A stretch of DNA of 60,167 bases from Bacilli bacterium (GTDB taxonomy: Bacteria; Bacillota_I; Bacilli_A; RF39; UBA660). The stretch covers positions 1 to 60,167 of the forward strand of contig JAQWBL010000004.1 in assembly GCA_028706395.1 (NCBI GenBank), read 5' to 3'. The position numbers and the translations under genes were made by a program. The notes under the pieces are model-generated. The model was not told the DNA's origin and searched no databases. It was given only the letters and a program-made list of their open reading frames with translations. Shown piece by piece: positions 4,819 through 32,841 of this stretch (its first letter is position 1; every line of letters begins with the position of its first letter).

Positions 4819-5679
4819 AAAATCGGTTTTATATAGAAAATCCATTTTTTTACTAACTTCCCGACACATATCATATTCACTACCACTAAATTCTATTTTA
4901 TCTGGTAATGAAATTAAAATAAACAATAGTTTTCGTTCCTCTTCCAATAAAGGATAACCCTTTTCATATTGCTTAAGAATCTCTGAAAACTCATATTCAA
5001 GGCTATGTTTCCGATATAATTTATATATATCAAAAATAGGTATACCTTCTTTAGCTTTGCTCCAACTAATTAAATACGAATTTTTATTTTTAATAAAATG
5101 ATCTAGTTCTAAATGATTATGGAGAATAACAAATCGTTGTTTTCTTTTTTCCTTGATTAATTTATACCATTCTTCTATTTCCTGCTTACAAAAACTGAGT
5201 GCTGAATAAATTTTAGAAATATTTCTAATAAGTGTATATTCAGAAGGGCTCATATATACTTTTGTTTCAATATGAGTTGCCATATCATTATAATAACCAT
5301 ATAAATATTCAATATTATTAGTAACATCTTCATACATTTTCTTGTAATCTGATTCATCTACTTCTTTGTAATAAGTCGTTTTACTATGAAGAAGACTAAC
5401 CAAATTTATCATATCAATCATTTTTTGATCAAGCGGCATTTCAACTTCTTCTTGGTATTCCATTATTTCATAATCATCATCTTTAGAACTAATAATGTTG
5501 GGATAATAATTAAAACTTCTAGAATCTAAATAATGATAAATGTCACTATTTTCATCTCGAAGTTTAGGTTTTAAAACATATTTACCTTCTTCGGTTTCAA
5601 TTATTACAGCTTTGCCAACAAAACGGTATCTATTTGCTTTTAAATTATATCTTTCTAGTACATTATTGATTTTTTTCAT
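4780..5679 (-). CDS. ysxE: YsxE/CotS-family spore-coat kinase-like protein
   Basis: 299 aa with a degenerate kinase-like block FVILHNHLELDHFI (CotS family has HGDLxxxN). It overlaps the upstream spoVID-like gene by 17 nt. The spoVID-ysxE-valS order matches Bacillus subtilis. Confidence 0.5.
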   Translation of the reverse strand: MKKINNVLERYNLKANRYRFVGKAVIIETEEGKYVLKPKLRDENSDIYHYLDSRSFNYYPNIISSKDDDYEIMEYQEEVEMPLDQKMIDMINLVSLLHSKTTYYKEVDESDYKKMYEDVTNNIEYLYGYYNDMATHIETKVYMSPSEYTLIRNISKIYSALSFCKQEIEEWYKLIKEKRKQRFVILHNHLELDHFIKNKNSYLISWSKAKEGIPIFDIYKLYRKHSLEYEFSEILKQYEKGYPLLEEERKLLFILISLPDKIEFSGSEYDMCREVSKKMDFLYKTDFLVTPYYSKKVKN

Positions 5680-6397
5680 TTGATACTGATGGAATAATTA
5701 GCTTATCACCGACACTTATTTCGTTAATATTATTGTAGAGTCCTAATTCTTCTTTACTAATTCCATAATTTTGAATTAGTAACTCCAAAGTATCCCCTTC
5801 TCTAACAATATAAATTTTGTAAGTTGTATAAGTTTCACTACTACTATCAAAATTATCAAATAATGAATTGGTTATCTCTTCATTTCTATTACTAACCATC
5901 GAAGTTTCCTCTTCCCTCTCCTTTGTTTCTCTCTTTTCTTCTCTTAATGCTTCAACATATGGCTCTTCAACTTCTAAAACCGGTTCTTCTACATCATAAA
6001 TCTGGTTAATTTTTGGTTCTTCTGTAATGGTTTCCTCTATTAACGGTTCTTCTATTAATGGTTTTTCTTCTAATTGATCAATTAAAACTTCGATATTAAT
6101 CGATAATATATTATTATTAATTATTTCATAATAGAAATCATATATATCAACAACGACATTATCAATTATATATCTTTCATCAATACTAACTTCAAATGGT
6201 ATATTAAAAGAAAAGGATTCAACATTAACACTAGTATCAACCATTTTATAGTCACCACTAATAATAAATTCTCCAGTTACCATATTATCTTTATCAACTT
6301 GTAATGTATGCTCAAGTGAAATACTTGTTATTTCTGATAAATTGGTTTTAAAAATAATCTCTTTTTTAAATGGAATTATTTTATTCAAAAACATCAC
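5663..6397 (-). CDS. spoVID: stage VI sporulation protein D-like (SPOCS/DUF3794-type N-domain, acidic linker, C-terminal LysM)
   Basis: The N-terminal pattern is ITSISLEHTLQVDKDNMVTGEFIISGDY...FNIPFEVSID...DIYDFYYEI...LSINIEVLID. An E/P-rich acidic linker follows. The C-terminal LysM is YKIYIVREGDTLELLIQNYGISKEELGLYNNINEISVGDKLIIP. Synteny with ysxE supports the call. Confidence 0.55.
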   Translation of the reverse strand: MMFLNKIIPFKKEIIFKTNLSEITSISLEHTLQVDKDNMVTGEFIISGDYKMVDTSVNVESFSFNIPFEVSIDERYIIDNVVVDIYDFYYEIINNNILSINIEVLIDQLEEKPLIEEPLIEETITEEPKINQIYDVEEPVLEVEEPYVEALREEKRETKEREEETSMVSNRNEEITNSLFDNFDSSSETYTTYKIYIVREGDTLELLIQNYGISKEELGLYNNINEISVGDKLIIPSVSNEKNQ

Positions 6398-14132: not shown

Positions 14133-14142
14133 ACTATATATT

Positions 14143-14817: not shown

Positions 14818-14830
14818 TAATTCACCACCA

Positions 14831-15686: not shown

Positions 15687-15718
15687 ATAATCACCTCTAT
15701 ATTATTATAACATGACTG

Positions 15719-16393: not shown

Positions 16394-16544
16394 ATTAGCA
16401 CCCCCAATTATTTAAGTGTTATAATAACATCTAATTAATAAAAAGTAAAGTAATCATTATAATCATATTTTATATCCGCTTTATCATGGCACCCATAAAA
16501 ACATAATGAATATAATAACAGTGAAATAAAAGGAGGAATTTATT

Positions 16545-17543
16545 TTGAAAAAAATTATTATATCAATTTTTATTGTTTTATTAATTGCATTAGGAACCTT
16601 TTTTGCTTTAAAAGATAAAAATAAAGACTTAACCAAAGTAAAAGTTGCAGAAGTTACTCACAGTATTTTTTATGCCCCACAGTATATAGCGCATTCTTTA
16701 GGTTATTTTGAAGAAGAAGGATTAGATGTCGAATTAATATTAGTACCTGGTGCTGATAAAGTAGCCGCTGCTGTTTTATCAGGCGATGTTAATATTGGTT
16801 TTTGTGGTAGTGAAGCATCAATATATATTTACAATGAAGGTGAAGCAGATTATTTAATTAATTTTTCAGGATTAACTAAAAGAGATGGTAGCTTTATAGT
16901 ATCTAGGAAAAAAATTGATAATTTTAAACTTAGTGACATGAAGGGATTGGATGTTATAGGTGGTCGAAAAGGTGGAATGCCAGAAATGACATTTGAATGG
17001 GCACTTAAGACTGATGGCATTGATCCTAAAAGAGACGTTAACATTGACACAAGTATTGCTTTTGCCGCAATGGCAGGATCATTTATTGGTGGAAATGGCG
17101 ATTTTGTTACCCTATTTGAACCTTTAGCACTTCAAATAGAAAAACAAGGATATGGTTATGTTGTTGCTTCTGTTGGCGAACTTGGTGGTTCTGTTCCTTA
17201 TACAACTTACAGTGCCAAGAAAAGTTATATAGAGAACAATAAAACAACAATTGAAGGCTTTACAAGAGCAATTCAGAAAGGCTTAGATTATGTTCATAAC
17301 AATACTGCTGAAGAAATTGCCAAACACATAATCGATTATTTCCCTGACACATCAATTAATGATGTTACTAAAGTGGTAGACAGATATAAAAGTATTGATT
17401 CATGGTACAAAACAACCAAAATCGAAGAAAAAGATTTTGAACATGTTCAAGAAATAATGGAATCAGCAGGAGAATTAAACAAAAAAGTTCCATATAATAA
17501 ATTAGTTGATGTAAGTTTTTCCACAGAAAATAATAATGAATAA
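16545..17543 (+). CDS. ABC transporter substrate-binding protein (NMT1/THI5-like, NitT/TauT family)
   Basis: 332 aa with a TTG start after AGGAGG. It has an N-terminal anchor or signal. HSIFYAPQYIAHSLGYFEEEGLDVEL is typical of NMT1/THI5-type binding proteins. Confidence 0.75.
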   Translation: MKKIIISIFIVLLIALGTFFALKDKNKDLTKVKVAEVTHSIFYAPQYIAHSLGYFEEEGLDVELILVPGADKVAAAVLSGDVNIGFCGSEASIYIYNEGEADYLINFSGLTKRDGSFIVSRKKIDNFKLSDMKGLDVIGGRKGGMPEMTFEWALKTDGIDPKRDVNIDTSIAFAAMAGSFIGGNGDFVTLFEPLALQIEKQGYGYVVASVGELGGSVPYTTYSAKKSYIENNKTTIEGFTRAIQKGLDYVHNNTAEEIAKHIIDYFPDTSINDVTKVVDRYKSIDSWYKTTKIEEKDFEHVQEIMESAGELNKKVPYNKLVDVSFSTENNNE

Positions 17544-18123
17544 AATATTAAATATTGAAAACTTAAAGAAAATTTATCATACTAAGCAAGGTGAAATATT
17601 AGCGGTTGATAACTTTTCTTTTAATTTGTACGAAGGAGAGTTTGTGGCCATTGTCGGCCCAAGCGGATGTGGAAAGTCAACTATTTTATCAATTTTATGT
17701 GGTTTAGAGAAAGTATCAGAGGGAACCGTTAATTTTAATGATAATTCTATGATTGGTTATATGCTACAACAAGATAATTTATTTAATTGGAGAACAATTT
17801 TAAATAATTGCTTACTTGGTTTAGAAATAAAAAATGAATTAACAAAAGAAAATATTGATTATGTCATAAAATTATTAAATACTTATGGACTTGGTGATTT
17901 TATGAATAATTATCCAAATAGTTTATCAGGTGGAATGAGACAAAGGGCGGCTTTAATTAGAACATTAGCTACTAAACCAGATATTCTTTTATTAGATGAG
18001 CCTTTTTCAGCACTTGATTATCAAACTAGGTTAGCCGTATCAGATGATGTTTATAAGATTATTAAAAAAGAGAAAAAAAGTGTCATAATGGTCACCCATG
18101 ATATAAGTGAAGGTATACTCTAA
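17536..18123 (+). pseudogene. ABC transporter ATP-binding protein, 5' portion of a gene split by insertion
   Basis: Walker A GPSGCGKST, Q-loop, signature LSGGMRQR, Walker B LLLDEPFSALD and H-loop VTHDISE are all present. The frame then leaves the family consensus and stops after GIL. The missing C-terminus is found in frame at 30087..30263. Confidence 0.9.
18106..18112. repeat. left copy of the 7-bp direct repeat AGTGAAG (attL core candidate)
   Basis: Left junction gatatAAGTGAAGgtatac versus right junction cctatGAGTGAAGccataag. The identical core is AGTGAAG. Confidence 0.75.
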
Positions 18124-18130
18124 ATAAATA

Positions 18131-18159
18131 TTAAAAAAAGGATAATTATATTATCCTTT
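18131..18159 (-). terminator. intrinsic terminator after pgm, at the left end of the element
   Basis: 9-bp stem AAAGGATAA/TTATCCTTT with a 5-nt loop. A 7-nt U-run follows on the minus strand. Confidence 0.6.
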
Positions 18160-19518
18160 GATCACTTTATTAATTAACTCAAAATATTCTTCTTTGATTT
18201 TTTCAAGTAATTCCTCACTATTAGCTTCAAATCTAACTGTTAAGTTAGGAGTTGTATTAGAAGCCCTAACTAATACCCAAAACTCATCTTTTTCAATTCT
18301 TACACCATCAATATCTTTAAATGGTATTTTTTTGTGTTGTAATATTTCTTTAATCTGATCTATTACTTTAAATTTTTTTTCATCAGCAACAGAAACCTTG
18401 ATTTCATCAGTTGAATAATACTTATCAATTCCTTCTGATAACTCACTTATTGTTTTGCCTGTTGTTGATAATACTTCGACCATTCTAAGACCAGCATAAA
18501 TGCCATCATCAAAACCTGGAAATTTATCTTTAAAAAAGATATGTCCTGAATATTCACCGCCAAATTCAACATTTTCTTGGTGAAGTCTTCTATATACATA
18601 TGAATTTCCTGTACGATTCATAATATGCTTAAGGCCTAATTTATCGATTTCATTAATTAATGATTTCGAACATTTTACATCATAAAGAGCTGTTTTATTT
18701 TTCATATTTTTGCTTAAATAACGATACATTATAATCATATATAAATCACTATTAATAACATTACCTAAATTATCAACAAGCCCGATACGGTCCCCATCTG
18801 CATCTAAAGCAAGTCCTAAATCGTAGTTTAGTTCAACCACCTTTTTTTGAAGATCAACCAAGTTTTCAGGAACTGATGGATCTGGATGATGATTTGGAAA
18901 AGTCGGATCACTTTTTGCATAGATTAACTCATATTCAATTGGTAATGAATCAAGAATGTCCTTGATAACCACTGATGTTGTCCCATTTCCACAATCAACA
19001 ACTATTTTGATTTTTTCATTTCCTAAATCAAGAGATTTTTTAATAAGGTCAACATAATCATTTTTAATATCATAGTAATTTATAGTTCCATCTCCATCTA
19101 TAAATTCCCCTTTAATTGTAAAATTATAAAAGTCGGTAATTTCTTTCCCCAGAGCATTGCCAATTTCATTAAATGATAACTTAAATCCATTGTGATCGCT
19201 AGGATTATGGCTTGCAGTAATCATTATTCCTGACCATATATTTAAATATGTTCTAGCATAATAAAACATTGGGGTTGTAACAAGTCCTAGATCGGTAACA
19301 TTGATACCAGTACTAATAATCCCTTTAATTAAAGAATCTCTTAAAGACGGCGAAGACAAACGATTATCATAACCAACCAAAGCTTCAGTCTTACCAACAC
19401 TGGTAATATATGTCCCAAAACTACGACCTAATATAAAAGCCATATCTTCATTAATATCAATTGGATAGATTCCTCTGATATCATAAGCTCTAAAAATTAA
19501 TGGATTTATTTTACTCAT
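18151..19518 (-). CDS. phosphoglucomutase/phosphomannomutase (alpha-D-phosphohexomutase family)
   Basis: The active-site Ser loop is TASHNPSDHNGFK, the metal loop is DADGDR and the sugar loop is GGEYSGH. I prefer the start MSKINP at 19518, 10 nt after AAGGAG. It overlaps the pgi stop as ATGAGTAA. Confidence 0.9.
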   Translation of the reverse strand: MSKINPLIFRAYDIRGIYPIDINEDMAFILGRSFGTYITSVGKTEALVGYDNRLSSPSLRDSLIKGIISTGINVTDLGLVTTPMFYYARTYLNIWSGIMITASHNPSDHNGFKLSFNEIGNALGKEITDFYNFTIKGEFIDGDGTINYYDIKNDYVDLIKKSLDLGNEKIKIVVDCGNGTTSVVIKDILDSLPIEYELIYAKSDPTFPNHHPDPSVPENLVDLQKKVVELNYDLGLALDADGDRIGLVDNLGNVINSDLYMIIMYRYLSKNMKNKTALYDVKCSKSLINEIDKLGLKHIMNRTGNSYVYRRLHQENVEFGGEYSGHIFFKDKFPGFDDGIYAGLRMVEVLSTTGKTISELSEGIDKYYSTDEIKVSVADEKKFKVIDQIKEILQHKKIPFKDIDGVRIEKDEFWVLVRASNTTPNLTVRFEANSEELLEKIKEEYFELINKVIKG

Positions 19519-20713
19519 TACCATCAAGCTCCTTTAAAACTAGTTTTTTATATTCATTCACTCCTGGTTGATTAAATGGTTCAACTTCAAGCAAATAAGC
19601 ACCAGCTGCGGCCGCTATTTCAAAAAAATAAATTAGCTGACCTATATTAAATGGTGTTAACGCATCAAGTGATATAAAATTACTACAAACTTTGTTTTTC
19701 ATATGAGAAGTTGCCACTTGATTAGCAACAATTTTATTTATTTCATCTAATTCTTTATTGTATTTAGGTATAACAAGTTCATTGTTACATTCAATATTAA
19801 TTACTGTTTCAAATAATATTTGGCTACCATCTTGATAAAATTGTCCTAAAGAATGTAGATCACCCGTATTAATAGAAGCAATTGGCAAAATGCCTTTACC
19901 TTCTTTTCCTTGAGTTTCCGCAAGTACTTGTTTAATACTTTCGACTAATGACAATAATTTAGGTTCATAAATGGTAATTGATTCAACCTTCTTATCCTCT
20001 TTGTATAAAAGATCTCTAATAACAGCGTAATCAAATGCCATTTGTTTATTTAAGGCCTTCGCTCCAATAATCATTTCATTTATATCCACACCTGCTACGG
20101 CAATTGGTAAAAGACCAACAACAGTCATAACAGAATATCTTCCACCAATATTGCTTGGTAAAACAAACGATTTATAATTTTTTTCATTAACTAATTGTCT
20201 CAGACTGCCTTCTTTTGCATCGGTTGTTACAATAATTCTTTTGCTAAGTTCTTCAGCACTATATCTTTTACTAAGCTTATTATATAAATATTCAAAATAT
20301 AAATTTGTTTCAAAAGTTGTCCCAGATTTAGAAATCACATTAATAATAACTTCTTTATCGTCAATATATTTTATTAATTCTTCTAGATAAGTCGATGATA
20401 ATGATGATCCTAAAAAGATTATTTCAGGATTGCTTTTTTTAAAGTATGGTTTAAATGCATCAATAACAGCCTTCGCCCCTAATGATGAACCTCCTACACC
20501 AATAACAAGAAAAACGTCACAATTACTACGAATATAATCACTTGTTTTTAAAACATCTTCTAAAGTTTCAGGAGTAATGCACTTACCTAAATCATACCAA
20601 TCATTCATTGATGTACCTGTTTCTAGTAGATTAATAATTTTATTTATTTTGGGTTGATAATCCAAAATATTATTAAATGGTTTCATATAAGTACTAAAAT
20701 CAAATTTAATCAT
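19511..20713 (-). CDS. pgi: glucose-6-phosphate isomerase
   Basis: VIGVGGSSLGAKA, SKSGTTFET and NIGGRYSV are hallmarks of the short bacterial PGI. I prefer the ATG at 20713 (MIKFDFS...). It overlaps the stop of the giant ORF as ATGATTAA. Confidence 0.9.
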   Translation of the reverse strand: MIKFDFSTYMKPFNNILDYQPKINKIINLLETGTSMNDWYDLGKCITPETLEDVLKTSDYIRSNCDVFLVIGVGGSSLGAKAVIDAFKPYFKKSNPEIIFLGSSLSSTYLEELIKYIDDKEVIINVISKSGTTFETNLYFEYLYNKLSKRYSAEELSKRIIVTTDAKEGSLRQLVNEKNYKSFVLPSNIGGRYSVMTVVGLLPIAVAGVDINEMIIGAKALNKQMAFDYAVIRDLLYKEDKKVESITIYEPKLLSLVESIKQVLAETQGKEGKGILPIASINTGDLHSLGQFYQDGSQILFETVINIECNNELVIPKYNKELDEINKIVANQVATSHMKNKVCSNFISLDALTPFNIGQLIYFFEIAAAAGAYLLEVEPFNQPGVNEYKKLVLKELDGNE

Positions 20714-23700
20714 TCTTTTCACCTATCTTTACTATAACGACGTGTGTTTTTTTATCGTTAACTAATTCTATATAATTATTTTTAGTGGATTTATCATCAA
20801 TTATAATCTCATCTTTTGGTTCTTTTAACTTAACCTTGATTTCATAAATAGTATCCTTATAACGATATGTTATTGCAAAATTTTTCCACTTAGTTGGAAC
20901 ATTAGGGTTAATATATAGTTTGTTACCTCTTAAATTAAAACCAATAATATCTATAAGGGCAACACGATAGAACCAGCCACTAGTACCCGTATACCAACTC
21001 CAACCACCTTGACCCGCAAAGCTTTCGTTGCTATAAATATCTGCCACAAAAACATATGGTTCAACTTTATATTTTAGGGCATCCTCTTTAGTTTTAGTAC
21101 GATTAATTGGATTCATCATTTGATAGTGATCGAATGCTAAATCGTTCTTTCCGATTTTTAGTAGAGCTTGAATATACCAAGCAACCGCGTGAGTATATTG
21201 CCCTCCATTTTCCCTAATACCTTTTGGATAATCCATAATATATCCCGGATTATCTTTATTTTTAGAGAAAGCCGGTGTTAAAAGCTTAATAATTTTTAAA
21301 TCATTATCAACCAATTTAGTTTCAACCGAATCAATCATCGTACCAATTTGTTTAGAATCAGCAACACCCGATATAATTGCAAAACTTTGTGATAATAAAT
21401 CTATTGAACATTCTTCGTTAGTACTTGATCCAACTGGATGACCATTATCAAAGAAGGCTCTTAAATAATATTTACCATCCCAAGCAACATTTCTTAAAGA
21501 TTCTTTTAGTTTTTGATTAAAATCTTTATACACACTTAAATCAATATTAGCGTCATATCTTTTGCCAAAAACCATAAATTCATTAATCAATTGATACAAG
21601 AAGAAACCTAACCAAACACTGGTTCCTTTTCCGCCCGCACCTATTTTGTTCATTCCATCATTCCAGTCACCACCACCCATTAAAGGTAGACCATTGTGAC
21701 CGAGTTCATTCATGGCTTTATTAATTATTAATTGACAACGTTCATAAAGAGTTGATGTTTCCTCACTAACCTTATAATCAATTAACTTTTCATGTTCATG
21801 TGGTTCAAGTGAAAAACCGGTAATAAATGGAACTTGTTCATCTAAAATACTGAAATCTTCAGTAATCTTTAAATATTCACTAATTGCGTAGATTAACCAC
21901 AAATAATCATCTTTGTATAATGAACGCAATCCAATATCTAATTTAGGATGCCACCAATGAAGAACATCTCCTTCTTTAAATTGATGAGCAGCATTAAATA
22001 ATATTTGATTTCTTGTAATACTTGGATCAACACTACATACATTCATAGAATCTTGTAATTGATCACGAAATCCAAAGGCTCCACCAACTTGATAAAATCC
22101 GGCGCGAGCTTGCAATCTAGAAGCAATACTTTGGTATAAGGCCCACCCATTTATCATGTAGTCAAAACTATCATCTGGTGTTTTTATTTGAACAGTAGTT
22201 AATATATTATTCCAATGACTTTTTACATTTTCTAACTCTTCATTAACTTTAGCAACATCTTGATATTTTGTAACTAACATATCTAAATTATCTTTTGTAG
22301 CACTACCTAAAGTAAAGACCAATTCTTTTTCTTCTTTTTCTTCTAGATAGAAATCAACCTCAATTTCTTTAACTAATAAATTATTAATTAAAGCATTATC
22401 AATTTTTTCAGTACTCGACATATAGGCATATAAATGATTAAACTTTTGACTATAAACATTTCTGATGCTTAAATAATTATTATCTTGATTAAATTCACTT
22501 AATAAATATCGTCCTGTTTTTTCCTCAGTAAACCCAAGATTAGGATTAATCCAAAACTTCAAAATAATTCGTTGTTTACGAGCAGAATTGTTTTTTAAAT
22601 TCATCTTATAAAACTTAACATTATCTTCTTTAGCAACAAACTGAATTAAATTAAGATTAATATGTTTAAAGTTTCCAATATATTCACTATAGCCAAATCC
22701 AAATTTAACGTGACTGAAATTGATTTTCATATCATTAATTTTAAATCCTTCAGAATAATCATTAACTAAAGCATCATTTGTCCATGAAGTTAATTTATAT
22801 TCCCTACTATTGCCAGCATAAGTAAATCCACAGTTATTGTTAGTAACAACCGTTCCAAAGTTTTTATTAGAAATAACATTGCTCCAAGCGGCTGGGGTAT
22901 TTTGATCAACTATTATATATTCTTTACCATTATTAATAAAACCACCAAATTCATTAAAAAACTTTATTTTGTTTTTATCATACACAATTGGTAAACTAGG
23001 AACTTCATTTTCATTATTTTTAGTTTTTACAGTATTTAATTTTTGAAGTTCATCAATATAATACTGCAATGAATTATGAAGGGTGCTATCAATTTTTAAT
23101 CTTGCAACCGTTTTTAATAACACATAATCTTCTTCACTAATAGTTTTTCTATTTAAAACAAAGATTGAACCAGGGGTATTAAAGAAATCATTAATAGCAT
23201 ACATATGATATTTTTCATTTTCAATTTCCTTAGCAATTACTTTTGATTGTTCTTCATCTTCACTGTTGATTATAACCAAGTCAACAAAAATGGCCTTACT
23301 CTTATAATATTCAAAAGCATGTAATAATTCTTTAACTAAACTTAAATCACTTAAATCTTTTACATCTAGTAAAATTATGGGACGATCTCCAGATATTCCA
23401 AAACCCCATAAATTAGTTTGATTTAAAGTGTTTTTAGTTAAATTATTAATAACTTCATCACTTACAACAATATAATTTGTTTGAAGTAAATAATTAAGCA
23501 TAGTATTATACAAACGACGGTCATTACTACTCATATTAACCATTTTATTACTAGCATTACTCATAATAATTGCTGTTTCAAATCCTTTTTCATTTATAAC
23601 TTGTTTATTGCAATATGTTCTAACGATATTTAAAACATGTTCCCTAGATCTACCAAAACCAGTTATTAAATAAACCGTTTTTTCACTATCTTTAGGTACC

Positions 23701-26700
23701 AAAAGCTTATTTCTTAAACTAATAATTGGATCTAATGTTGTTCCAACATAATTACGTAGTTTTTCATGAATTGCTTTAGGATTATTAGTATTACGACCTC
23801 TTCCAATAAAATTATCTCGATTTGTTTCATACTCAAAAGAACCAATTGGATCTTCAATTAATAATCGGCTTATCATGTAATAATTCGTATCAGAATTTCT
23901 TAATTTTCTTTTCATAATAATAGAATCGGTATTTTCATCGTATTCACTATAAACAAACATATTATTAAATACTGGATGCCCAATATCATCAGAATTAAGA
24001 CCTAAAATAGGTTCAGTATAAGTTGTTAATTCCAACTCCTTATCTTTATTTCCATTATTTTTAAAAGTTATCTTTCTTATCTCCGCATTATGTGATTTGG
24101 TTACCACAATTTCTGTAGTCGTAATAACATCCCTATCAGCTCTAACAAATTTTATATTATCAAGAGCATAAACAATTTCATATTTCCTTGGTTTAACATT
24201 AATTGGAGCATATGTATTAGACCAAACTTTTTTCGTTTGCAAATCCTTAATATAAACAAATTGTCCATAATCTCTTTCAGTAACCTTACGATATCTATTT
24301 AATCTGATTTGGTAGTATTTACTATACCCGTTTCCACGATCATTAATAATCACACTATACTTAGAATTTGATAAAACAGACAATTCGGGTAGTTTTGATA
24401 TTTGATTATAAACCCTAATATCATTAACAAACGGTTCTTTCTCGTAAGTATATTTTTTATATCTCATAGTTTCATAATTAATATGTGGTCTTAATTGGAC
24501 TTTTTCTTTTATCAACATGTCCACAGCTTGATTACGAATATCTTTATAAAAATAAGATTGAATAACACCATCAGTTAAAAAGTTGGTCAGACTTCCTAAA
24601 ATCATCCCTTGATGATGGGCATAATATGACACGACTGGAACTTCATCCAAGCAATCATATGATTCATATAATCCATATTTACCAAACATATTAAGTGGTT
24701 TAAATTTTTTAATATTTTTAACAACTTCTTTAGGAAACAAAGGTAGTGCCAAAAGGGAACTATATGGCGATATGACAACCCTTTCACTAGCTTCCTCACG
24801 AAGTCTTAACTGTGGAATTCCAAACGCTTTATATTTATAATTTTGAGCATCATCCAACTCGTTATAAGCAGACTCAGAAATCCCCCATGGATACTTCTTA
24901 TTATATTTTTTCATATAATCGCATTGAACATAATGCGCAAAATGATAAGCTTCATCAATTATTGTGTTAGCGTAACTTGGCATAAATAGAAGTGGCATAT
25001 AGTACTCAAAAAAAGTACCAGACCACGATGATAAACCTTTTTTATTTTTATAAGCAATTAAAGTTTTATCAAGCCCAAACCAATGCTTACTAGGAACATC
25101 GCCTTTAGCAATTGCTAAATAACTTAAAATACGACTTTCACTCATAAACTTATTATAATTAAATGGTTCTAAACGGCCTTGATCAACATGGTAACCAACA
25201 CTAAATACGTCAGTATCTGTATATAAATAATTAAATTCCGTTTTATTAATTAATCTTTCAATTATCCTTAATAATTCAAGGCGTCCGTGTTTTTCAACAA
25301 ATCCTTTTGCTACCATTAGAGAGGCTACAAAGTTACCACTATCAACACTTGAAATAAAATGTGGGTACATGACTTCTAAAGTTTTAATATTGTACCAATT
25401 ATATAGATGACCATGCCACTTATCTAGTTTCTTAACAGATGAAACAATTTTTTCAAGTAATTCAAGAGCTTTATCAACACTTATTAATTTTAATTCGCAC
25501 GCTGAAATAACGGATACTAAAGAAAGTCCGATATTAGTTGGGGACGTTTTTATATCCGGTTTAACATCTCTATTTTCTTGATAATTATCAGGAATTAAAT
25601 AATTATTTTCTTCAATTAAATGGTCCTCAAAATAACTCCAAGTATTCTTAGCTAGATTATTTAATGATTCAATATCTTCCTCTTCAACCTGATCTTTATC
25701 TTGTACTAAATCTTTACTAATTAAATAAACAATAACTGGACCCAGCATAAAAATAAAGGAAATAACAAGTTTTAATACTTGATGTTCATTAGAAAATAGA
25801 GACCAGACAATTAAAATAAGGGCAACAATTATATTAATCCAAAATTGTTTAACTGTATTCCATAAATTTGTCTTAACTAACTTTGCAGCATCGTCTGCTG
25901 TAACCCAATTAAGTAAATGCTTTTTACTAATAGTCATTCGGTATATTGAACGAATAAACGAATTTAAATATAAATAAGCATTATAGGGAATTGTTGATAA
26001 TTCAGTAACCGCTCTTAAAATAAGAGCCCTATAACCAAACACTAGTATTCGATAGTATTTTAAAGAACTAAAACTAGAACGACTAATTACAAAGTTTTCG
26101 ATTACCTGAATAATTATTGGTAAGATATATATTAAAATAACAAACAATAACCACCAATTAGGATCCACAATATTACTATTAAGCGCAATAAAAAGAATTA
26201 TTAATAAAAAAACATTAATTAATCCGCGTCTAATATTATCGATGATTTTCCACTTACCTAATAAACTGATGGGATTTTTTTCTTTTTTTCCAGATTCATT
26301 TCGAACCCTATTTCCGACCCATCCAATTACTTGCATATCTCCTCTCGCCCATCTTGAACGTCTAGAAGCATCTACTAAAAATTTAGATGGAAAGCCATCA
26401 ATTAAATCAATATCAGTTACATTACCGGCGCGAAGATAATTACCTTCAACTAAATCATGACTTAGTATTAAATTATTTGGGAACCGATTTTTTAAAACTT
26501 GTTGATAAACATTCAAATCATAAATTCCTTTTCCATAAAAAGATCCTTCTTTAAAAACATCTTGATAGAAGTTTGGAAAAAGATTACTATATGGATCAAA
26601 CCCACCAATCCCTGCATATATTTGTGAAAACAACGACTTATTACTTGCTTCAACTTCTAAAGTAATTCTAGGTTGTAATATCCCATATCCGGCAATAACC

Positions 26701-28370
26701 TTAGTCTTTGATTCATTTAAAATAGGTCTATTCAAAGGATGAGCCATAGTCCCAACTAGTTTTAAGGCACTGTTTAGTACCAACTCCGTATCCACATCTA
26801 AAGTAATTACATATTTAATCTTATGATTAAAATTATGAAAGGTATGAACTTTAAACCATTCTTCTTGTTCTTCTAAACTCTTGTTACCTAATAATAAATC
26901 ATTAAAGTGAAGTAGGGCGCCCCTTTTTCGTTCGAAACCTAACCAAGTTCCCTCACCCTTATTATACTTACGACGGCGATAGACAAAATTAAAAATATTT
27001 TTACCATACAATTTATTTAATCTTTCAGCTTCTGCAACACCAGAAGAAATAATATCAGGATCACTTTTATGATTTTCTTCACTATTTTCAAAAGCATCAG
27101 CTAATAATGTAAAATATAAATTTTTGGATTTATTAATTAAATAATATTTTTCTAAACTAGCAAAAACTTGCTTAATCTTTTCGTCATTTTTAACAATTGT
27201 TGGAATAACAACCATTGTTTTATAATTAGACGGTATCCCCTTAGAAAAATCTAATTTAGCCAATGGTTTTGCTTTAAAAAATCTCAAAAATATATTTTGC
27301 ACAATAATATTTACTATCTCACTAATAGGAATTAGGAGTACTATAAAACCTAGTAATCGATAACTAGTTAATAAGCCTGATAAATAATAACTTAAAGCCG
27401 CTGTTATACCAAATACAATTACTAAATAAATTATAACTTTTAATGAACTATAATCCTTTTTCTTTAAAAGTCCATCACTGATATTATTATACTCATCCAA
27501 AATGTCTTTTACTAAAGTATCAGCTGTAACATTTCTTTTTCTTGCACGTTTGAGCAAATGCTGACGAATTAAATTTTTAGTATCAAGCGTCATCTTCGAA
27601 TATAATTTATCTTCTTGAAGTAACTTTTCAACATCATTAACTTTTTCAAAAATATTTTCCATAACAAAAACACTAGTTTCTTTAAAACTAACAAAAATAT
27701 TATTAATAACTATATTAGACTCAGTAGTTTTTAAATGTTCTTCATTAATAATGTCAATCATTACTTTGTTATTATTTTCTAATATACTATTGAATTGTTT
27801 AAAAACATCATTTGTGTATTCGCCCAATTCTTTAAGTTGCTCATTAAAATAAACAATACTATAACCAGACATTTTATTTAAGTTTATATATTTTTTCAAA
27901 TTTATTTCTTCATTATTTAAAACCTTTTTCTTTAGTTTATTAATAATACTCTTAACTTCTTTTTTATCCCGTAACTTAGATGATTCATCTTCACAAATAA
28001 TCGATACTTCTTTTAATAATAATATTTTAATAACCAAAGGTATAATTGCTAATTCCTTATATTTTAAGTTATAACCTGATTTTTTTTGATAATCGATTAC
28101 TTCTTTAATAATAATGTTTTCATTAATCTTATAATTATATTTTTCTAAAATGGTTTTAAAAACATCATACATATCTAAATATTTACTAGTATAACTATAT
28201 GCCTTTTTATCTTTAGTAAACTTTTTTATAGAGTCCTTTTGTTCAACTAATAAATAGTAATTATCTATTATCCATTCATTAACAATGCCTACAAAAAAAT
28301 GATTATTAATCATTTTAATTAATTTATTATAATGTTTTCTTATCTTATTAAATTCATTACCGCTTATCAT
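20706..28370 (-). CDS. cyclic beta-1,2-glucan synthase-like giant protein (TM segments + GT84-like glycosyltransferase + glucoamylase-like middle domain + GH94 phosphorylase-like C-domain)
   Basis: 2554 aa.
- GT region: VVIPT..., ITLDVDTE, ILQPRI, LSHDLVEGNYLR (26442..26462 encodes SHDLVEG) and RRSRWARGDMQ, flanked by TM helices.
- Middle region: SPTNIGLSLVS and WGISESAY, glucoamylase-like.
- C-terminus: FRDQLQD, GGGDWNDGMN (DWND at 21657..21668), GGQYTHA and GGWSWYTGTSGWFYR, typical of GH94. Confidence 0.8.
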   Translation of the reverse strand: MISGNEFNKIRKHYNKLIKMINNHFFVGIVNEWIIDNYYLLVEQKDSIKKFTKDKKAYSYTSKYLDMYDVFKTILEKYNYKINENIIIKEVIDYQKKSGYNLKYKELAIIPLVIKILLLKEVSIICEDESSKLRDKKEVKSIINKLKKKVLNNEEINLKKYINLNKMSGYSIVYFNEQLKELGEYTNDVFKQFNSILENNNKVMIDIINEEHLKTTESNIVINNIFVSFKETSVFVMENIFEKVNDVEKLLQEDKLYSKMTLDTKNLIRQHLLKRARKRNVTADTLVKDILDEYNNISDGLLKKKDYSSLKVIIYLVIVFGITAALSYYLSGLLTSYRLLGFIVLLIPISEIVNIIVQNIFLRFFKAKPLAKLDFSKGIPSNYKTMVVIPTIVKNDEKIKQVFASLEKYYLINKSKNLYFTLLADAFENSEENHKSDPDIISSGVAEAERLNKLYGKNIFNFVYRRRKYNKGEGTWLGFERKRGALLHFNDLLLGNKSLEEQEEWFKVHTFHNFNHKIKYVITLDVDTELVLNSALKLVGTMAHPLNRPILNESKTKVIAGYGILQPRITLEVEASNKSLFSQIYAGIGGFDPYSNLFPNFYQDVFKEGSFYGKGIYDLNVYQQVLKNRFPNNLILSHDLVEGNYLRAGNVTDIDLIDGFPSKFLVDASRRSRWARGDMQVIGWVGNRVRNESGKKEKNPISLLGKWKIIDNIRRGLINVFLLIILFIALNSNIVDPNWWLLFVILIYILPIIIQVIENFVISRSSFSSLKYYRILVFGYRALILRAVTELSTIPYNAYLYLNSFIRSIYRMTISKKHLLNWVTADDAAKLVKTNLWNTVKQFWINIIVALILIVWSLFSNEHQVLKLVISFIFMLGPVIVYLISKDLVQDKDQVEEEDIESLNNLAKNTWSYFEDHLIEENNYLIPDNYQENRDVKPDIKTSPTNIGLSLVSVISACELKLISVDKALELLEKIVSSVKKLDKWHGHLYNWYNIKTLEVMYPHFISSVDSGNFVASLMVAKGFVEKHGRLELLRIIERLINKTEFNYLYTDTDVFSVGYHVDQGRLEPFNYNKFMSESRILSYLAIAKGDVPSKHWFGLDKTLIAYKNKKGLSSWSGTFFEYYMPLLFMPSYANTIIDEAYHFAHYVQCDYMKKYNKKYPWGISESAYNELDDAQNYKYKAFGIPQLRLREEASERVVISPYSSLLALPLFPKEVVKNIKKFKPLNMFGKYGLYESYDCLDEVPVVSYYAHHQGMILGSLTNFLTDGVIQSYFYKDIRNQAVDMLIKEKVQLRPHINYETMRYKKYTYEKEPFVNDIRVYNQISKLPELSVLSNSKYSVIINDRGNGYSKYYQIRLNRYRKVTERDYGQFVYIKDLQTKKVWSNTYAPINVKPRKYEIVYALDNIKFVRADRDVITTTEIVVTKSHNAEIRKITFKNNGNKDKELELTTYTEPILGLNSDDIGHPVFNNMFVYSEYDENTDSIIMKRKLRNSDTNYYMISRLLIEDPIGSFEYETNRDNFIGRGRNTNNPKAIHEKLRNYVGTTLDPIISLRNKLLVPKDSEKTVYLITGFGRSREHVLNIVRTYCNKQVINEKGFETAIIMSNASNKMVNMSSNDRRLYNTMLNYLLQTNYIVVSDEVINNLTKNTLNQTNLWGFGISGDRPIILLDVKDLSDLSLVKELLHAFEYYKSKAIFVDLVIINSEDEEQSKVIAKEIENEKYHMYAINDFFNTPGSIFVLNRKTISEEDYVLLKTVARLKIDSTLHNSLQYYIDELQKLNTVKTKNNENEVPSLPIVYDKNKIKFFNEFGGFINNGKEYIIVDQNTPAAWSNVISNKNFGTVVTNNNCGFTYAGNSREYKLTSWTNDALVNDYSEGFKINDMKINFSHVKFGFGYSEYIGNFKHINLNLIQFVAKEDNVKFYKMNLKNNSARKQRIILKFWINPNLGFTEEKTGRYLLSEFNQDNNYLSIRNVYSQKFNHLYAYMSSTEKIDNALINNLLVKEIEVDFYLEEKEEKELVFTLGSATKDNLDMLVTKYQDVAKVNEELENVKSHWNNILTTVQIKTPDDSFDYMINGWALYQSIASRLQARAGFYQVGGAFGFRDQLQDSMNVCSVDPSITRNQILFNAAHQFKEGDVLHWWHPKLDIGLRSLYKDDYLWLIYAISEYLKITEDFSILDEQVPFITGFSLEPHEHEKLIDYKVSEETSTLYERCQLIINKAMNELGHNGLPLMGGGDWNDGMNKIGAGGKGTSVWLGFFLYQLINEFMVFGKRYDANIDLSVYKDFNQKLKESLRNVAWDGKYYLRAFFDNGHPVGSSTNEECSIDLLSQSFAIISGVADSKQIGTMIDSVETKLVDNDLKIIKLLTPAFSKNKDNPGYIMDYPKGIRENGGQYTHAVAWYIQALLKIGKNDLAFDHYQMMNPINRTKTKEDALKYKVEPYVFVADIYSNESFAGQGGWSWYTGTSGWFYRVALIDIIGFNLRGNKLYINPNVPTKWKNFAITYRYKDTIYEIKVKLKEPKDEIIIDDKSTKNNYIELVNDKKTHVVIVKIGEKND

Positions 28371-28467
28371 CTTTAACCACCTCTACTTTTTTATCTTACT
28401 ACTTATATAGTATATCACATAATCATTCAAATTAAAACTTTATAACCTTGACTTTCAAAGCACTTTA

Positions 28468-29934
28468 TCAATCATAAAGCTTAACTTCTATCATTATAGG
28501 ACAACCATTCATTTTATTCTTTTCATCATTTTTTATGATAATATATTCAACAAATTGATTTAAAAAATCACGCCTTTCAAAATTTGTTAACATTTCAAAA
28601 TGATCACTGAGATTAATCAAAATATTTTCAACATTTTGATGATTGATTCTTTTAATATTTTCCAACCGTTTTAATCTCTCACTCATTACCTTATTTTTCA
28701 AATTAATTTCTTTTATCATAAATTGCATTTGAACATTAGAAATGCTATTATCCATAAATAACTGTATTATTTCTTCTTCTTTAACTTTATTTTTACGAAT
28801 ATTTTTTTTCAAGTCATTAATTTCAAGATTTTCTTTATTATCAAGACAAATATCAAAACTGTCGATTACATCAAAACCACTTATTGTTTTCAAATATTTA
28901 AGAAAAGCTTTTTCCATCTTTATATGGCTTACACCACTTCCTTCACACATTCCAAGTTCCCGATTACGACATCTATATCCATAATATATTTTATTGTTTC
29001 TCTTAGTTCTTTGAGTTGTTAACAGGGTATTACAGCAACCACATACAATTGTTCCACAAAAATAAACATCATCCTTTGGTTTATTAGTACGAAGTTTTAA
29101 ATTATTTTTTAGATGTTTTTCTTGAACTAATTTATATGTTTCATCATCTATCAAAGGACTATGATTCCCATTATATTCTTGATAATCCTCCCTATTCAAA
29201 TGATATCTGATTTTGCCAATATAAGTTGAATTAGATAAGATAAGTTTTATTGTTTTTGAAGTCCATTTAGTAATTTTATTTCCTATTTTAGATCGCTTTG
29301 TCAATACTTTTGAAGCATTAAGCGCTCTAGCAATATCGGAAAAAGAATTTCCATCGAGATACATGCTATAAACTCGCTTAACAATAGTTGCTTCATCTTC
29401 ATTTACAATTAATTCATTACTTCCTTTTTCACGATTATATCCATATGGAGGAGTTGAGCTACATAAAGTCTTCCCCATCTTCGCTTTACCAGCAAAACCA
29501 TCTTTGATGCGATTAATAATAGCTTTTCTTTCATATTGCCCAAAAGCACTTTGAATAATCGTAAATAGCCAATCACTAGGATTATCTGATTCTATTTTTC
29601 TTCCTGTACTATCAATTAATTCACAATTAAAGTTATTAAATATATTTAATAAAGTAGCCGTATCAACAACATTTCTGGATAATCTATCAAGTTTAGTAAT
29701 TAAAACCTTATTTATTTTTTGGTTCTTTATATCGTCTAACAATTGTTTAAGCATTGGTCGTTCTGTATTTTTACCACTTATTCCAGCATCATTATATATC
29801 TTATATATGATCCAATTATTTTTATTAGCCAGGTTTGTTAGTAGATCTATTTGTTGGGGAATTGAATAACCAAATTCCTTTTGATCTTCAGTCGATACTC
29901 TGACATAAATCCCAACCTTTAAACTATTGTTCAA
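28468..29934 (-). CDS. large serine recombinase (resolvase domain + recombinase domain + zinc ribbon + coiled coil)
   Basis: 488 aa. The N-terminus is KVGIYVRVSTEDQ, carrying the catalytic Ser. It also has DRLSRN, the Cys cluster CGTIVCGCCNTLL...YRCRN...CEG and a long C-terminal helical region. The start is TTG at 29934. No in-frame ATG lies between it and the upstream stop. Confidence 0.9.
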   Translation of the reverse strand: MNNSLKVGIYVRVSTEDQKEFGYSIPQQIDLLTNLANKNNWIIYKIYNDAGISGKNTERPMLKQLLDDIKNQKINKVLITKLDRLSRNVVDTATLLNIFNNFNCELIDSTGRKIESDNPSDWLFTIIQSAFGQYERKAIINRIKDGFAGKAKMGKTLCSSTPPYGYNREKGSNELIVNEDEATIVKRVYSMYLDGNSFSDIARALNASKVLTKRSKIGNKITKWTSKTIKLILSNSTYIGKIRYHLNREDYQEYNGNHSPLIDDETYKLVQEKHLKNNLKLRTNKPKDDVYFCGTIVCGCCNTLLTTQRTKRNNKIYYGYRCRNRELGMCEGSGVSHIKMEKAFLKYLKTISGFDVIDSFDICLDNKENLEINDLKKNIRKNKVKEEEIIQLFMDNSISNVQMQFMIKEINLKNKVMSERLKRLENIKRINHQNVENILINLSDHFEMLTNFERRDFLNQFVEYIIIKNDEKNKMNGCPIMIEVKLYD

Positions 29935-30025
29935 CTTTGTAACCTTTTTGAAGCATTCTAGGAATTGAAGTCCTTAATAAAAATGCAATAATTCTAGTCT
30001 GCTGTTCTTTAGTTAACCATATCAT
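29924..30025 (-). CDS. possible 33-codon upstream ORF overlapping the recombinase start
   Basis: AGGTGA RBS, then ATG at 30025. It reads MIWLTKEQQTRIIAFLLRTSIPRMLQKGYKVEQ. Its stop lies 11 nt inside the recombinase ORF in another frame. Confidence 0.3.
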   Translation of the reverse strand: MIWLTKEQQTRIIAFLLRTSIPRMLQKGYKVEQ

Positions 30026-30086
30026 AACATCACCTAATTAATCTTATGCAAAAACTTAATATATTATCATACTAATTAAACCTATG

Positions 30087-30093
30087 AGTGAAG
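30087..30093. repeat. right copy of the 7-bp direct repeat AGTGAAG (attR core candidate)
   Basis: See the left copy. Here the repeat is followed in frame by the ATPase C-terminus. Confidence 0.75.
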
Positions 30094-30263
30094 CCATAAG
30101 TATGGCCGACCGAATTATCGTCTTGACCAAGAGGCCTGGTACAATTAAAAGTATCTATAATATTGAATTAACAGATAAATCATCACCAATTGAAAATAGG
30201 AAAGCAAAAGAATTTGCATATTACTATGATTTAATTTGGAAAGAAATTGATTTTCATGTATAG
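30087..30263 (+). pseudogene. ABC transporter ATP-binding protein, 3' portion of the split gene
   Basis: The in-frame reading is SEAISMADRIIVLTKRPGTIKSIYNIELTDKSSPIENRKAKEFAYYYDLIWKEIDFHV*. This is the usual continuation after the H-loop in NitT/TauT-type ATPases. There is no start codon or RBS of its own. Confidence 0.85.
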
Positions 30264-31047
30264 CAAAGAACATATTAAATATTTAAAAAAAATAAAACAA
30301 GAAAAGGTTCTTGTTCTGTTTATTCAAATCTTTTTATCTATACTTTTTTTTGTAATTTGGCAATTGCTCGCCAATTTTGAACTCATTAATACTTTTGTTT
30401 CTTCAAGTCCTACGAGAGTTGTTGATACGCTTATAACATTACATCAAACAAATAATTTATATCAACATATTTTTACAACAGTCTATGAAACAGTTATTAG
30501 CTTTACCCTTGGAACAATCATTGGAATAATTATTGCAACAGCTTTATGGTGGAATAAATTTATTTCTAAAATTCTAGAACCATATCTTATAATATTAAAT
30601 AGTTTACCAAAGGTAGCGCTAGGACCAATTATTATTATATGGATAGGTGCGAAAACCGGTTCAATTATTGTTATGGCACTACTTATTTCAGTTATCGTTA
30701 CTATTATTAATGTGTTACAAGGTTTTAATGAAACCGATCCTGTAAAAGTAAAATTAATGAAATCACTTGGAGCCAGTAAAGGTCAAACATTTTTCAAGCT
30801 TGTGTTACCTAGTAGTTTCAATAACATTATAAGTGCATTAAAAATAAACGTTAGTATGTCTTTAATTGGAATTATAATGGGAGAATTTTTAGTATCAAAA
30901 AAAGGTATCGGTTATTTAATAATGTATGGTTCGCAAGTCTTTAACTTAGACTTAGTAATAACTGGGGTAATAATACTTGCAATCGTATCAGCAATTATGT
31001 ATTATATTGTCTACTATATAGAAAAAAGACTAGTCAAAAATGATTAG
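30256..31047 (+). CDS. ABC transporter permease (NitT/TauT family)
   Basis: Multi-TM protein with the EAA-like loop LMKSLGASKGQTFFKLVLPSS. The probable start is ATG at 30256, which overlaps the ATPase stop (ATGTATAG). Confidence 0.85.
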   Translation: MYSKEHIKYLKKIKQEKVLVLFIQIFLSILFFVIWQLLANFELINTFVSSSPTRVVDTLITLHQTNNLYQHIFTTVYETVISFTLGTIIGIIIATALWWNKFISKILEPYLIILNSLPKVALGPIIIIWIGAKTGSIIVMALLISVIVTIINVLQGFNETDPVKVKLMKSLGASKGQTFFKLVLPSSFNNIISALKINVSMSLIGIIMGEFLVSKKGIGYLIMYGSQVFNLDLVITGVIILAIVSAIMYYIVYYIEKRLVKND

Positions 31048-31075
31048 TCTTTTTAATAATATACACACTAAATAA

Positions 31076-31507
31076 TTATTGATTAAATAGTTTATTTAAA
31101 TAGGATTGTAAATCAGTTGAATTAATAATTTTAAAATACTTTTGATTAACAAATAAGAAGTTGTCTCTTATTTCAAAAATGCCTAATGCCTTTGCACTTT
31201 TTTCATCAATTAACTCTAAATAGTAAACATCTTTAAAATTGGTACTTATATTAAGAACTGTATTCAAATCAATATTAAAATCAACAACAAATTTGTGACT
31301 ATCATTAGGATTTAATTTCTTTATAACATTTCCTTTTTTTATATTCATATAATAATCACAAGATTTTACATCCATATTTACAATAGAAATAATACTACTA
31401 TTTTCATAATAATGACCACATTTTATCTTATCATTATTTATAATTAGGAAACCAACAATAATTGCTATCACGAATAATAAAATCGAAATAATTTTTTTAC
31501 TTTTCAT
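31076..31507 (-). CDS. hypothetical membrane-anchored or secreted protein
   Basis: 143 aa with the N-terminal hydrophobic segment IISILLFVIAIIVGFLII. It is the last gene of a three-gene minus-strand unit and overlaps the upstream ORF by 11 nt. Confidence 0.55.
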   Translation of the reverse strand: MKSKKIISILLFVIAIIVGFLIINNDKIKCGHYYENSSIISIVNMDVKSCDYYMNIKKGNVIKKLNPNDSHKFVVDFNIDLNTVLNISTNFKDVYYLELIDEKSAKALGIFEIRDNFLFVNQKYFKIINSTDLQSYLNKLFNQ

Positions 31508-32087: not shown

Positions 32088-32088
32088 A

Positions 32089-32616: not shown

Positions 32617-32841
32617 AAAATCACCCTTCATTAAAATATTTTTTTACATCGAACAACAAAACATTTATTCTAATAACATCTCCTCCCTACTCTGTTATCA
32701 TGGCTATCTATATATTTTAATATTATTATAGCACTTCAAAATTGATTTTACAAATTTCTTTAATCAATTTATTTTTTCTAAGACATATACAATTTAAGAA
32801 AAAAGTGTTAAGCATATTATATCTTAGGAGGTGGATATTAT

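Follow-up and report, generated by a model that had tools for sequence, protein, structure and literature searches.

We analysed a stretch of 60,167 nucleotides, contig JAQWBL010000004.1 (called 'the window' hereafter, meaning the whole stretch), in which the gene for a NitT/TauT-type ATP-binding cassette (ABC) ATPase is split by an 11,981-bp insert at positions 18113..30093. The insert carries a large serine recombinase (LSR), a conserved small open reading frame (the 'micro-ORF') and the operon cgs-pgi-pgm. Our best reading, to which we assign a probability of roughly 0.6, is that the insert intervenes in a gene in the manner of gin and skin: it would be a non-phage element, competent to excise, the removal of which restores a transporter operon. 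Loci of relatives are designated below by L-numbers (for example, L087).

The interrupted operon and the two attachment (att) sites comprise the following features:

16507..16516, plus strand: sigma-A-like extended -10 promoter of the ABC operon, TGAATATAAT, kept in split and intact genomes alike
16545..17543, plus strand: substrate-binding protein (SBP), NMT1/THI5-like, first gene of the operon (Pfam, NCBIfam)
17536..18112, plus strand: 5' part of the ATPase gene, residues 1-192, through the H-loop THDISE
18106..18112: attL core AGTGAAG, read in sequence
18113..18129: element-side arm of attL, GTATACTCTAAATAAAT, homologous to the arms of L100, L103 and the cargo-less L092
30049..30086: element-side arm of attR, which holds the conserved GTATGATAAT at 30063-30072
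30087..30093: attR core AGTGAAG, read in sequence
30094..30263, plus strand: 3' part of the ATPase gene, residues 193-248
30256..31047, plus strand: ABC permease, last gene of the operon (the ORF list places a TTG start at 30247)

As it stands, the ATPase ORF (17536..18123) runs to VTHDISE, departs there from the family consensus, and stops after GIL. When 17536..18112 is joined in silico to 30094..30263, the reading frame is continuous and an intact ATPase of 248 amino acids is obtained, on which matches to Pfam ABC_tran and to NitT/TauT/Ssu/Sao-type NCBIfam models span the junction. Its stop codon overlaps the permease gene, the start of which is likely the ATG at 30256, as in relatives; the overlap is then 8 nt. 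The corresponding empty site is found at the identical position in L087 and L088. Blastn alignment of the window with these two loci (about 90% nucleotide identity) reaches position 18117 and picks up again at 30084, synteny extends over more than 10 kb on each side, and their ATPase is intact, with 97% amino acid identity to the joined protein. The joined ORF and the empty site together show that the insert interrupts a coding gene and that its excision restores the frame exactly. An earlier sequence-only reading of the window had put forward the heptamer at both junctions, the divergence after VTHDISE, the joined ATPase, the overlap with the permease and an empty site to be sought in relatives, and on all these points it was right.

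The window comes from a metagenome-assembled genome, and unrelated DNA might have been brought together by assembly or binning. We regard such an artefact as hardly conceivable: the same architecture and junctions are found in at least four independent assemblies (NCBI, Logan, JGI, ENA) from different species, with identical junctions in L083/L100, L081 and L084-86. Moreover, the GC content of the insert is about 0.28, equal to that of the flanks, and composition is uniform across both junctions.

Comparison with L103 and L084 narrowed the shared core to CTGA, so that the crossover probably takes place within the TGA of the Ser/Ala-Glu codons. The predicted attB (excised chromosome) is CATGATATAAGTGAAGCCATAAGTATGG, and the predicted attP (circle junction) is CCTATGAGTGAAGGTATACTC; judged by eye, there is a CCAT...ATGG symmetry in attB and a partial symmetry in attP.

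The recombination functions lie next to the right junction:

28468..29934, minus strand: LSR of 488 amino acids (Pfam, NCBIfam and structure matches), catalytic motif VGIYVRVSTEDQ, Ser14
29924..30025, minus strand: conserved micro-ORF of 33 amino acids, MIWLTKEQQTRIIAFLLRTSIPRMLQKGYKVEQ, between the recombinase and the right junction
30038..30048, minus strand: motif CATAAGATTAA, just upstream of the Shine-Dalgarno sequence of the micro-ORF

The recombinase is of the type that the sequence-only reading had assigned and, judged by its motifs, is intact: the catalytic serine context is kept, together with all three LSR domains (PF00239, 121 bits; PF07508, 75.7 bits; PF13408, 28.1 bits). Ser14, in IYVRVSTEDQ, aligns to the catalytic Ser12 motif of the TP901-1 integrase. 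In an alignment of 20 recombinase sequences, Y10, R12, S14 and Q18 are invariant, and so are the zinc-ribbon cysteines C298, C301 and C322, while C293 is nearly so. The same reading had found no excisionase-like gene in the insert; it had overlooked the micro-ORF, which is preceded by a Shine-Dalgarno sequence (AGGTGA) and overlaps the start of the recombinase gene by 11 nt, that is, it is translationally coupled to it. Homologues of 31 to 51 amino acids are present at the same position in L083, L081, L084, L092 and L096, and in about 25 of the 28 family loci examined. Their core motif, KIxLSKxxQxKMxEFFxxTSIPRM, looks better conserved than the recombinase itself. A Pfam search of the micro-ORF returned nothing significant, and a 45-amino-acid variant matches phrog_30936, a family of unknown function. 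By analogy, the micro-ORF is a candidate directionality factor, the only one in the element, or an accessory protein; so small a directionality factor has a precedent, since the GirX protein of the gin element has 42 amino acids. A paper on a 'virtual pulldown' of directionality factors mentions neither GirX nor SprB. In most family members, a CATA-type, -10-like motif is present in front of the micro-ORF; four members have ACATTAT-N13/14-CATATAYT. Scanning the region of the recombinase for sigma-70 promoters gave no more matches than expected from shuffled sequence.

If the ATPase is regularly rebuilt, one would expect both of its halves to be maintained in genomes where the element is present. 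Ratios of nonsynonymous to synonymous substitution (dN/dS) were calculated for pairs in which both genomes are occupied, namely the window and L083 or L100. For the 5' half, dN/dS was 0.035 (window versus L100, dS 0.53). For the 3' half, it was 0 (window versus L083, dS 0.94), without a single amino acid change over 58 codons; this half is 100% identical in amino acids to those of L083 and L087 at a dS of 0.8 to 0.9. The permease (0.047 at dS 0.66, versus L083) and the SBP (0.11 at dS 0.39, versus L100) gave similarly low values, and the recombinase gave 0.137 (dS 0.84, versus L083). In other comparisons, dN/dS of the 3' half was 0.035 with L081 and 0.098 with L084, and that of the 5' half was 0.09 with the cargo-less L092. 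Both halves and the recombinase are thus under strong purifying selection, and the halves have been kept functional while the element stays in the germ line. The 56-residue C-terminal fragment, devoid of a ribosome-binding site, could not be selected alone, and a regularly rebuilt ATPase is therefore the simplest explanation.

Selection could also act without excision, if the ATPase worked as two polypeptides, a 195-amino-acid N-terminal product and a 59-amino-acid peptide initiated at the junction ATG at 30084. An in-frame ATG is indeed present right at the junction in the window, L083, L081 and L084. However, no Shine-Dalgarno sequence precedes it in the window or in L081, and on reading the junctions of L130 and L151 no such in-frame ATG is seen. 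The 3' fragment and the permease have no evident promoter, with one weak consensus match only, and the conservation of recombinase and micro-ORF would be left unaccounted for. We judge this arrangement to be exceedingly improbable.

As for the history of the locus, the synonymous divergence between the window and L083/L100 is 0.74 to 0.87 for the element genes and 0.39 to 0.94 for the flanking genes, from which we conclude that element and flanks diverged together. On this branch, the recombinase (78% amino acid identity) is more diverged than the host ATPase (96%). The empty L087 and the two occupied genomes, window and L083, are about equidistant (dS 0.3 to 0.7). L087 is also without the cgs operon at the locus, like an excised genome, so that loss by precise excision in L087 is the most parsimonious scenario. 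Trees were also consulted on which layout is the older, that of the window or that with cgs beside the intact operon; those of Cgs, of the ABC genes and of PcrA/LigA disagree, and dS is saturated. The few contigs available per species are uniformly occupied or uniformly empty; those of the window species (two of two) and of the L083 species (four of four) are all occupied.

The element might have lost its ability to excise, leaving the ATPase as a permanent pseudogene. No excision products were found and there is no canonical annotated excisionase, as such a fixed relic would predict. Nevertheless, conservation extends to the recombinase, the micro-ORF, the two att arms and the two halves of the gene, and a precise empty site is present in L087, among occupied relatives at roughly equal distance, which makes a relic very unlikely.

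The element is no one-off. A survey was carried out on one genome per species, with the 20-sequence recombinase alignment as query, and the best 80 recombinase loci were inspected. At 30 of them, the recombinase lies between a 3' ATPase fragment with the permease on one side and a 5' fragment with the SBP on the other, always in the same orientation. These 30 cover nearly all recombinase relatives of at least 37% identity, and mostly come from genomes labelled 'Bacilli bacterium', Clostridium sp. CAG:914 being included. Relatives of 36% identity or less are, with few exceptions (L138, L139), not tied to the ATPase gene. This is apparently an undescribed and widespread family, found at one and the same codon in uncultured gut Bacilli of about 30 species. 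Identity to the recombinase of the window is about 78 to 79% for L083/L100, 65% for L081, and 60% for L084-86 and L103. Both ATPase halves are visible at 10 of the 30 loci, in elements of 2.4 to 6.5 kb, compared to 12 kb in the window. No intact copy of the ATPase gene was found next to the recombinase at any of the 30 sites, and no stop codon or frameshift was seen in the ATPase halves there.

The content of these elements is variable, and is placed in slots on either side of the recombinase. The cgs-pgi-pgm cargo occurs at only three species-level loci of the family. A Peptidase_S51 gene is carried by L096-99; reading of the ORF sequences at other loci revealed ClpP-like, XRE-like and ParA/ParB-like proteins, a small resolvase, an insertion sequence (IS)-type transposase, a collagen-like protein, membrane proteins and enzymes. 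L092 is cargo-less apart from a 69-amino-acid Cys-rich ORF (2003-2212 of that locus), opposite to the recombinase and with a repeated ECCVCINxY motif. In the Peptidase_S51/ClpP-like branch (L096, L117, L113, L121, L122), the recombinases are 80 to 95% identical and the host ATPase halves 55 to 64%. A phage origin of the family was considered and rejected, as a scan of IMG/VR with the family alignment gave no recombinase relative above 35% identity.

The same place in the gene is found interrupted outside this family. In an Anaerocolumna metagenome-assembled genome (L069, 10590-13470), an insert of 2.85 kb, with core GAAGCAAT, interrupts a homologous ATPase at the same codons; it contains only a 555-amino-acid LSR (24% identical to that of the window, and in opposite orientation) and a small ORF. 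In Clostridioides difficile CD160 (L050, 5980-6579), an ATPase homologue stops at the same codon, where THDIGEA is followed by LCIKVQL and a stop. Its C-terminal part is not within 10 kb; downstream there are ordinary genes, namely eutQ/eutH and those for an aminotransferase, AbgT, an M20 peptidase and MarR. Either a large insertion or the scar of an old event at this hotspot may account for the arrangement.

In the window, the remainder of the insert is occupied by the cargo operon:

18140..18156: hairpin GGATAATTATATTATCC (-8.7 kcal/mol), which includes part of the stop codon of pgm and is followed, on the strand of that gene, by a run of T
18151..19527, minus strand: pgm, phosphoglucomutase/phosphomannomutase, PgmG-like (Pfam, NCBIfam)
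19511..20722, minus strand: pgi, glucose-6-phosphate isomerase (Pfam, NCBIfam)
20706..28370, minus strand: cgs, homologue of cyclic beta-1,2-glucan synthase, 2554 amino acids (Pfam, structure matches)
28409..28421, minus strand: extended -10 promoter-like sequence of the cgs operon, TATGTGATATACT, kept upstream of cgs with and without recombinase

Over its full length, Cgs matches the Agrobacterium/Brucella structures 8rf9/8rf0 at 1341 bits; the match to 8wy1, a cyclization domain, is at 339 bits, and Pfam finds the Glycoamylase, GH94 supersandwich and GH94 catalytic domains. One giant polypeptide thus unites the glycosyltransferase, cyclization and GH94 phosphorylase regions, the N-terminal glycosyltransferase region being supported through the 8rf9 match alone. 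Homologues number 985 at E <= 1e-50, and those of about 2550 amino acids are common in the clade; among the best 120, identity is never below 49% and length is roughly 2,100 to 2,570 amino acids. In L081, two ORFs with overlapping homology (11602-19493; 2107 and 483 amino acids) stand in place of one cgs homologue, owing to a frameshift or an assembly error. An extended -10 sequence, TATG(A/G)TATA(C/A)T, precedes cgs in every relative compared. The hairpin, to go by its position and T run, is probably the terminator of the cargo operon, and it also faces the truncated ATPase ORF.

The four large ORFs and the micro-ORF fill nearly the whole insert, the gaps between them being 38, 97 and 61 bp. 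No capsid, tail, terminase, lysis or repressor gene was found among them, PHROG matches were restricted to the integrase and the micro-ORF family, and no transfer functions were found in the element. The identification of the three cargo genes and the absence of phage or conjugation genes, both proposed from the sequence alone, are thereby confirmed. The proposal of a minimal mobile element with foreign cargo stands for the anatomy of the element but fails for the cargo, since the operon is chromosomal in relatives. Indeed, cgs-pgi(-pgm) is chromosomal and free of any recombinase in L090, L091, L093, L094 and L104, where its neighbours include a uracil-DNA glycosylase gene and parB (L093), a class II aminoacyl-tRNA synthetase gene (L094), and pcrA at a distance of about 5 kb (L104). 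In L089/L090 and L091 (GCA_964465805.1, GCA_028703405.1), equally recombinase-free, cgs-pgi-pgm and the intact ABC operon are immediate neighbours, tail-to-tail: DtxR-FeoAB-cgs-pgi-pgm is followed on the opposite strand by permease, ATPase and SBP. In its outer flanks, L090 pairs with the occupied L081 (arc operon), and L091 pairs with the occupied L084 (TsaEBD). The gene orders indicate that the cargo is the host lineage's own, native operon, taken up into a cargo slot of an LSR mini-element. Because the pgm-side attL arm is homologous to those of L100 and L103 and to that of the cargo-less L092, the cargo must have entered between the recombinase and an intact arm. For the same reason, capture by mis-excision at a pseudo-site next to pgm was rejected, a model that would account for the place of cgs-pgi-pgm right beside the permease in relatives. 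Models of capture by a series of inversions or by duplication require at least three steps.

We propose the following mechanism. The module would consist of the LSR and its translationally coupled micro-ORF, acting on att sites that share a TGA-containing core in the Ser-Glu codons after the H-loop. In the integrated state, the ATPase would be truncated after the H-loop (195 amino acids, three codons past the junction), and transcription from the ABC promoter would yield the SBP and the truncated ATPase before meeting the pgm terminator hairpin. Genes on the other strand, 12 kb in all, would separate the 3' fragment and the permease from the promoter of the operon. The importer would then be off, with cyclic-glucan synthesis encoded on the chromosome. 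Expression of micro-ORF and recombinase would lead to recombination between attL and attR, release of an 11,981-bp non-replicating circle, and reconstitution of the ATPase gene and of the SBP-ATPase-permease operon.

Our leading guess is that excision would be triggered by a conditional programme like those of gin and skin, which may run in the mother cell. The gene content suggests that the lineage appears to sporulate, with a mother-cell regulon. The hints for a mother-cell trigger are YsxE-like and SpoVID-like genes in the window, both below curated cut-offs; a textbook sigma-E-type promoter, TCATATT-N13-CATATAAT at 6398-6460, in front of the SpoVID-like gene (5663..6397, minus strand); a GerA operon beside the ABC operon in L091; and the CATA-type motif before the micro-ORF. 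More doubtful, and put forward only tentatively, is the idea of a programmed switch outside sporulation genes, in which, in a defined state of the cell, a single excision would turn the importer on and, on the cgs branch, also remove the cell's only cyclic-glucan operon. Were it true, two physiological states would be mutually exclusive at the DNA level, and a core operon would have been made excisable cargo.

Ranked second to the intervening-element reading is that of an ordinary mobile cassette. The insert would then be a selfish or mobilisable element of the staphylococcal cassette chromosome (SCC) or integrative and mobilisable element type, the recombinase of which happens to have its attB at a conserved codon of the ATPase gene, so that insertion inactivates an importer the cell can do without. 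Excision would be rare and serve transfer only, and the halves would be conserved by a history of uninterrupted genes or by exchange with empty alleles. The presence of the element is patchy, with many intact homologues at 75 to 97% identity, and the diverse cargo of the family, which includes ParA/ParB-like, XRE-like, small resolvase and IS-type transposase genes, would be expected of such a cassette, as would the use of the same codons by unrelated recombinases in Anaerocolumna and probably C. difficile.

Several further points weigh against the excisable intervening element, and some of them favour the cassette as well. Between L096 and L117 the recombinase is 95% identical and the host ATPase 64%; by sequence, this branch clearly testifies to recent horizontal transfer between diverged hosts, and the elements are clearly mobile there. 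As the family is horizontally mobile elsewhere, selection on the halves could in part reflect uninterrupted time, and the deeper phylogenies of Cgs and of the flanks are incongruent. The interrupted gene is no known sporulation gene: the target is an importer ATPase rather than a mother-cell gene, and its operon is read from the vegetative-type promoter TGAATATAAT. The -35 region upstream of the micro-ORF in the window is a poor sigma-E match, and the role given to the micro-ORF draws on its conservation, its position and the GirX precedent. As the circle has no replication function, dividing cells would be left without cgs-pgi-pgm upon excision. No excision product, be it an attP circle or a same-species attB allele, was found. 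A scan of JGI metagenome contigs with the attP pattern ATGASTGARGN{2,3}ATAYWCTRAAT gave 19 matches, all by chance: none has recombinase, pgm or ATPase context, and the most similar, L270, is in an unrelated, eukaryotic-looking contig. Nor did the protein collection contain a joined ATPase more than 97% identical that would represent an empty allele of the same species (the 90% cluster of P0121 has one member). That excision takes place regularly in living cells is what we infer.

The following observations, however, speak against a mere cassette at this locus. There is no sign of recent arrival on the window branch, where the recombinase is at 78% identity compared to 96% for the host ATPase and the dS of the element equals or exceeds that of the flanks. 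At dS 0.5 to 0.9 between occupied genomes, the split operon is fully preserved, from its promoter and SBP to both halves of the ATPase and the permease, and the intactness of the ATPase halves extends to the 30 family sites. The uniform occupancy of the window and L083 species points the same way, as does the absence of detectable transfer functions. Finally, the cargo is a core operon of the host, and loss of the element would therefore be costly. We thus take the cassette seriously while considering it unlikely, and retain the gene-intervening element as the best reading.

Other features of the window deserve mention. A 1.7-kb block at 31054-32767, between the permease and a CmpB-like gene, contains three minus-strand ORFs (143, 196 and 180 amino acids). 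It is missing from the close relatives L087 and L083, and looks like a separate small insertion; its ORFs gave no Pfam or PADLOC matches, and only weak PHROG matches (phrog_5482; phrog_10840 and a metallo-protease-like family). Upstream of the ABC operon, a Fic-domain gene (14831-15538) matches the PADLOC candidate defence family PDC-S04 (181 bits). PADLOC matched this gene only, and a defence-system reading of the neighbouring ORFs was rejected. An ORF of 367 amino acids at 2163-3266 strongly matches PF12810, the ALK/LTK glycine-rich domain (165 bits), an unusual match for a protein from bacteria.

If our reading is correct, gene-intervening elements would extend beyond sporulation and heterocyst genes to a transporter gene. 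Split ATPase genes of this kind are likely annotated as pseudogenes in uncultured gut Bacilli. The codons that follow the H-loop of an ABC ATPase stand out as a recurrent integration hotspot, used by unrelated recombinases in Anaerocolumna and probably in C. difficile. The family offers a natural series from cargo-less elements to elements with small cargo and to a 10-kb native operon, which illustrates how such a module can engulf core genes of its host and make them excisable or transferable. It also provides dozens of diverged sets of recombinase, att sites and micro-ORF, which are directly testable as pairs of integrase and directionality factor for genome engineering.

How does the element compare with known systems? 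The sequence-only reading could match it to no described class; gin (PMC5595907) and the SCC-type recombinase cassettes do exist, and the skin-style intervening element, which that reading had kept as an alternative, turned out to be the better supported of its two proposals. Developmentally excised elements include skin of B. subtilis (SpoIVCA, sigK), skinCd of C. difficile (PMC5025042) and SPbeta, with SprA/SprB, in spsM (PMC4191935, PMC5499854). There as here, an LSR excises, or would excise, an intervening element and the split gene is rebuilt; direction is set there by a small directionality factor. These elements span 14 to 134 kb. SprA (9dxh) is among the solved-structure matches of the window recombinase. 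They are, however, prophages or prophage remnants in mother-cell genes, whereas the element of the window is without phage genes and its target is no sporulation gene.

The fdxN element of Anabaena, excised by XisF from a metabolic gene during heterocyst development, offers another likeness. XisF needs XisH and XisI. The best NCBIfam match of the window recombinase is XisF (NF041201), at 154 bits, far below the cut-off of 375, so that the recombinase is no equivalog of it; phylum and developmental programme differ as well. SCC elements resemble the insert in that they consist of serine recombinase(s) and cargo only, without phage or conjugation genes, and insert site-specifically into a chromosomal gene that is conserved; the window recombinase also has weak NCBIfam matches to CcrB, CcrC and CcrA. 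In contrast to the insert, which splits a gene mid-way and has native cargo, SCC lies at the 3' end of rlmH without destroying the gene, uses CcrAB or CcrC, has no directionality factor, and carries foreign resistance genes. With regard to the cargo, Cgs differs from Cgs/NdvB of Agrobacterium and Brucella in being a Firmicute-type protein of 2554 amino acids, encoded in an operon with pgi and pgm.

The gin element, in gerE of Bacillus cereus ATCC 10987, is a non-prophage element with the recombinase GirC and the 42-amino-acid GirX, which has no known motif (PMC5595907). Set beside it by description rather than by the sequences of GirC and GirX, the element of the window is likewise a non-prophage intervening element with an LSR, an accessory ORF of about 40 amino acids, a short shared core and exact restoration of the frame. 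The differences are that gin interrupts a sporulation regulator and the window element an importer ATPase with a vegetative-type promoter, and that here the micro-ORF overlaps the start of the recombinase gene, the cargo is a 10-kb native metabolic operon, and the family is spread over about 30 uncultured species.

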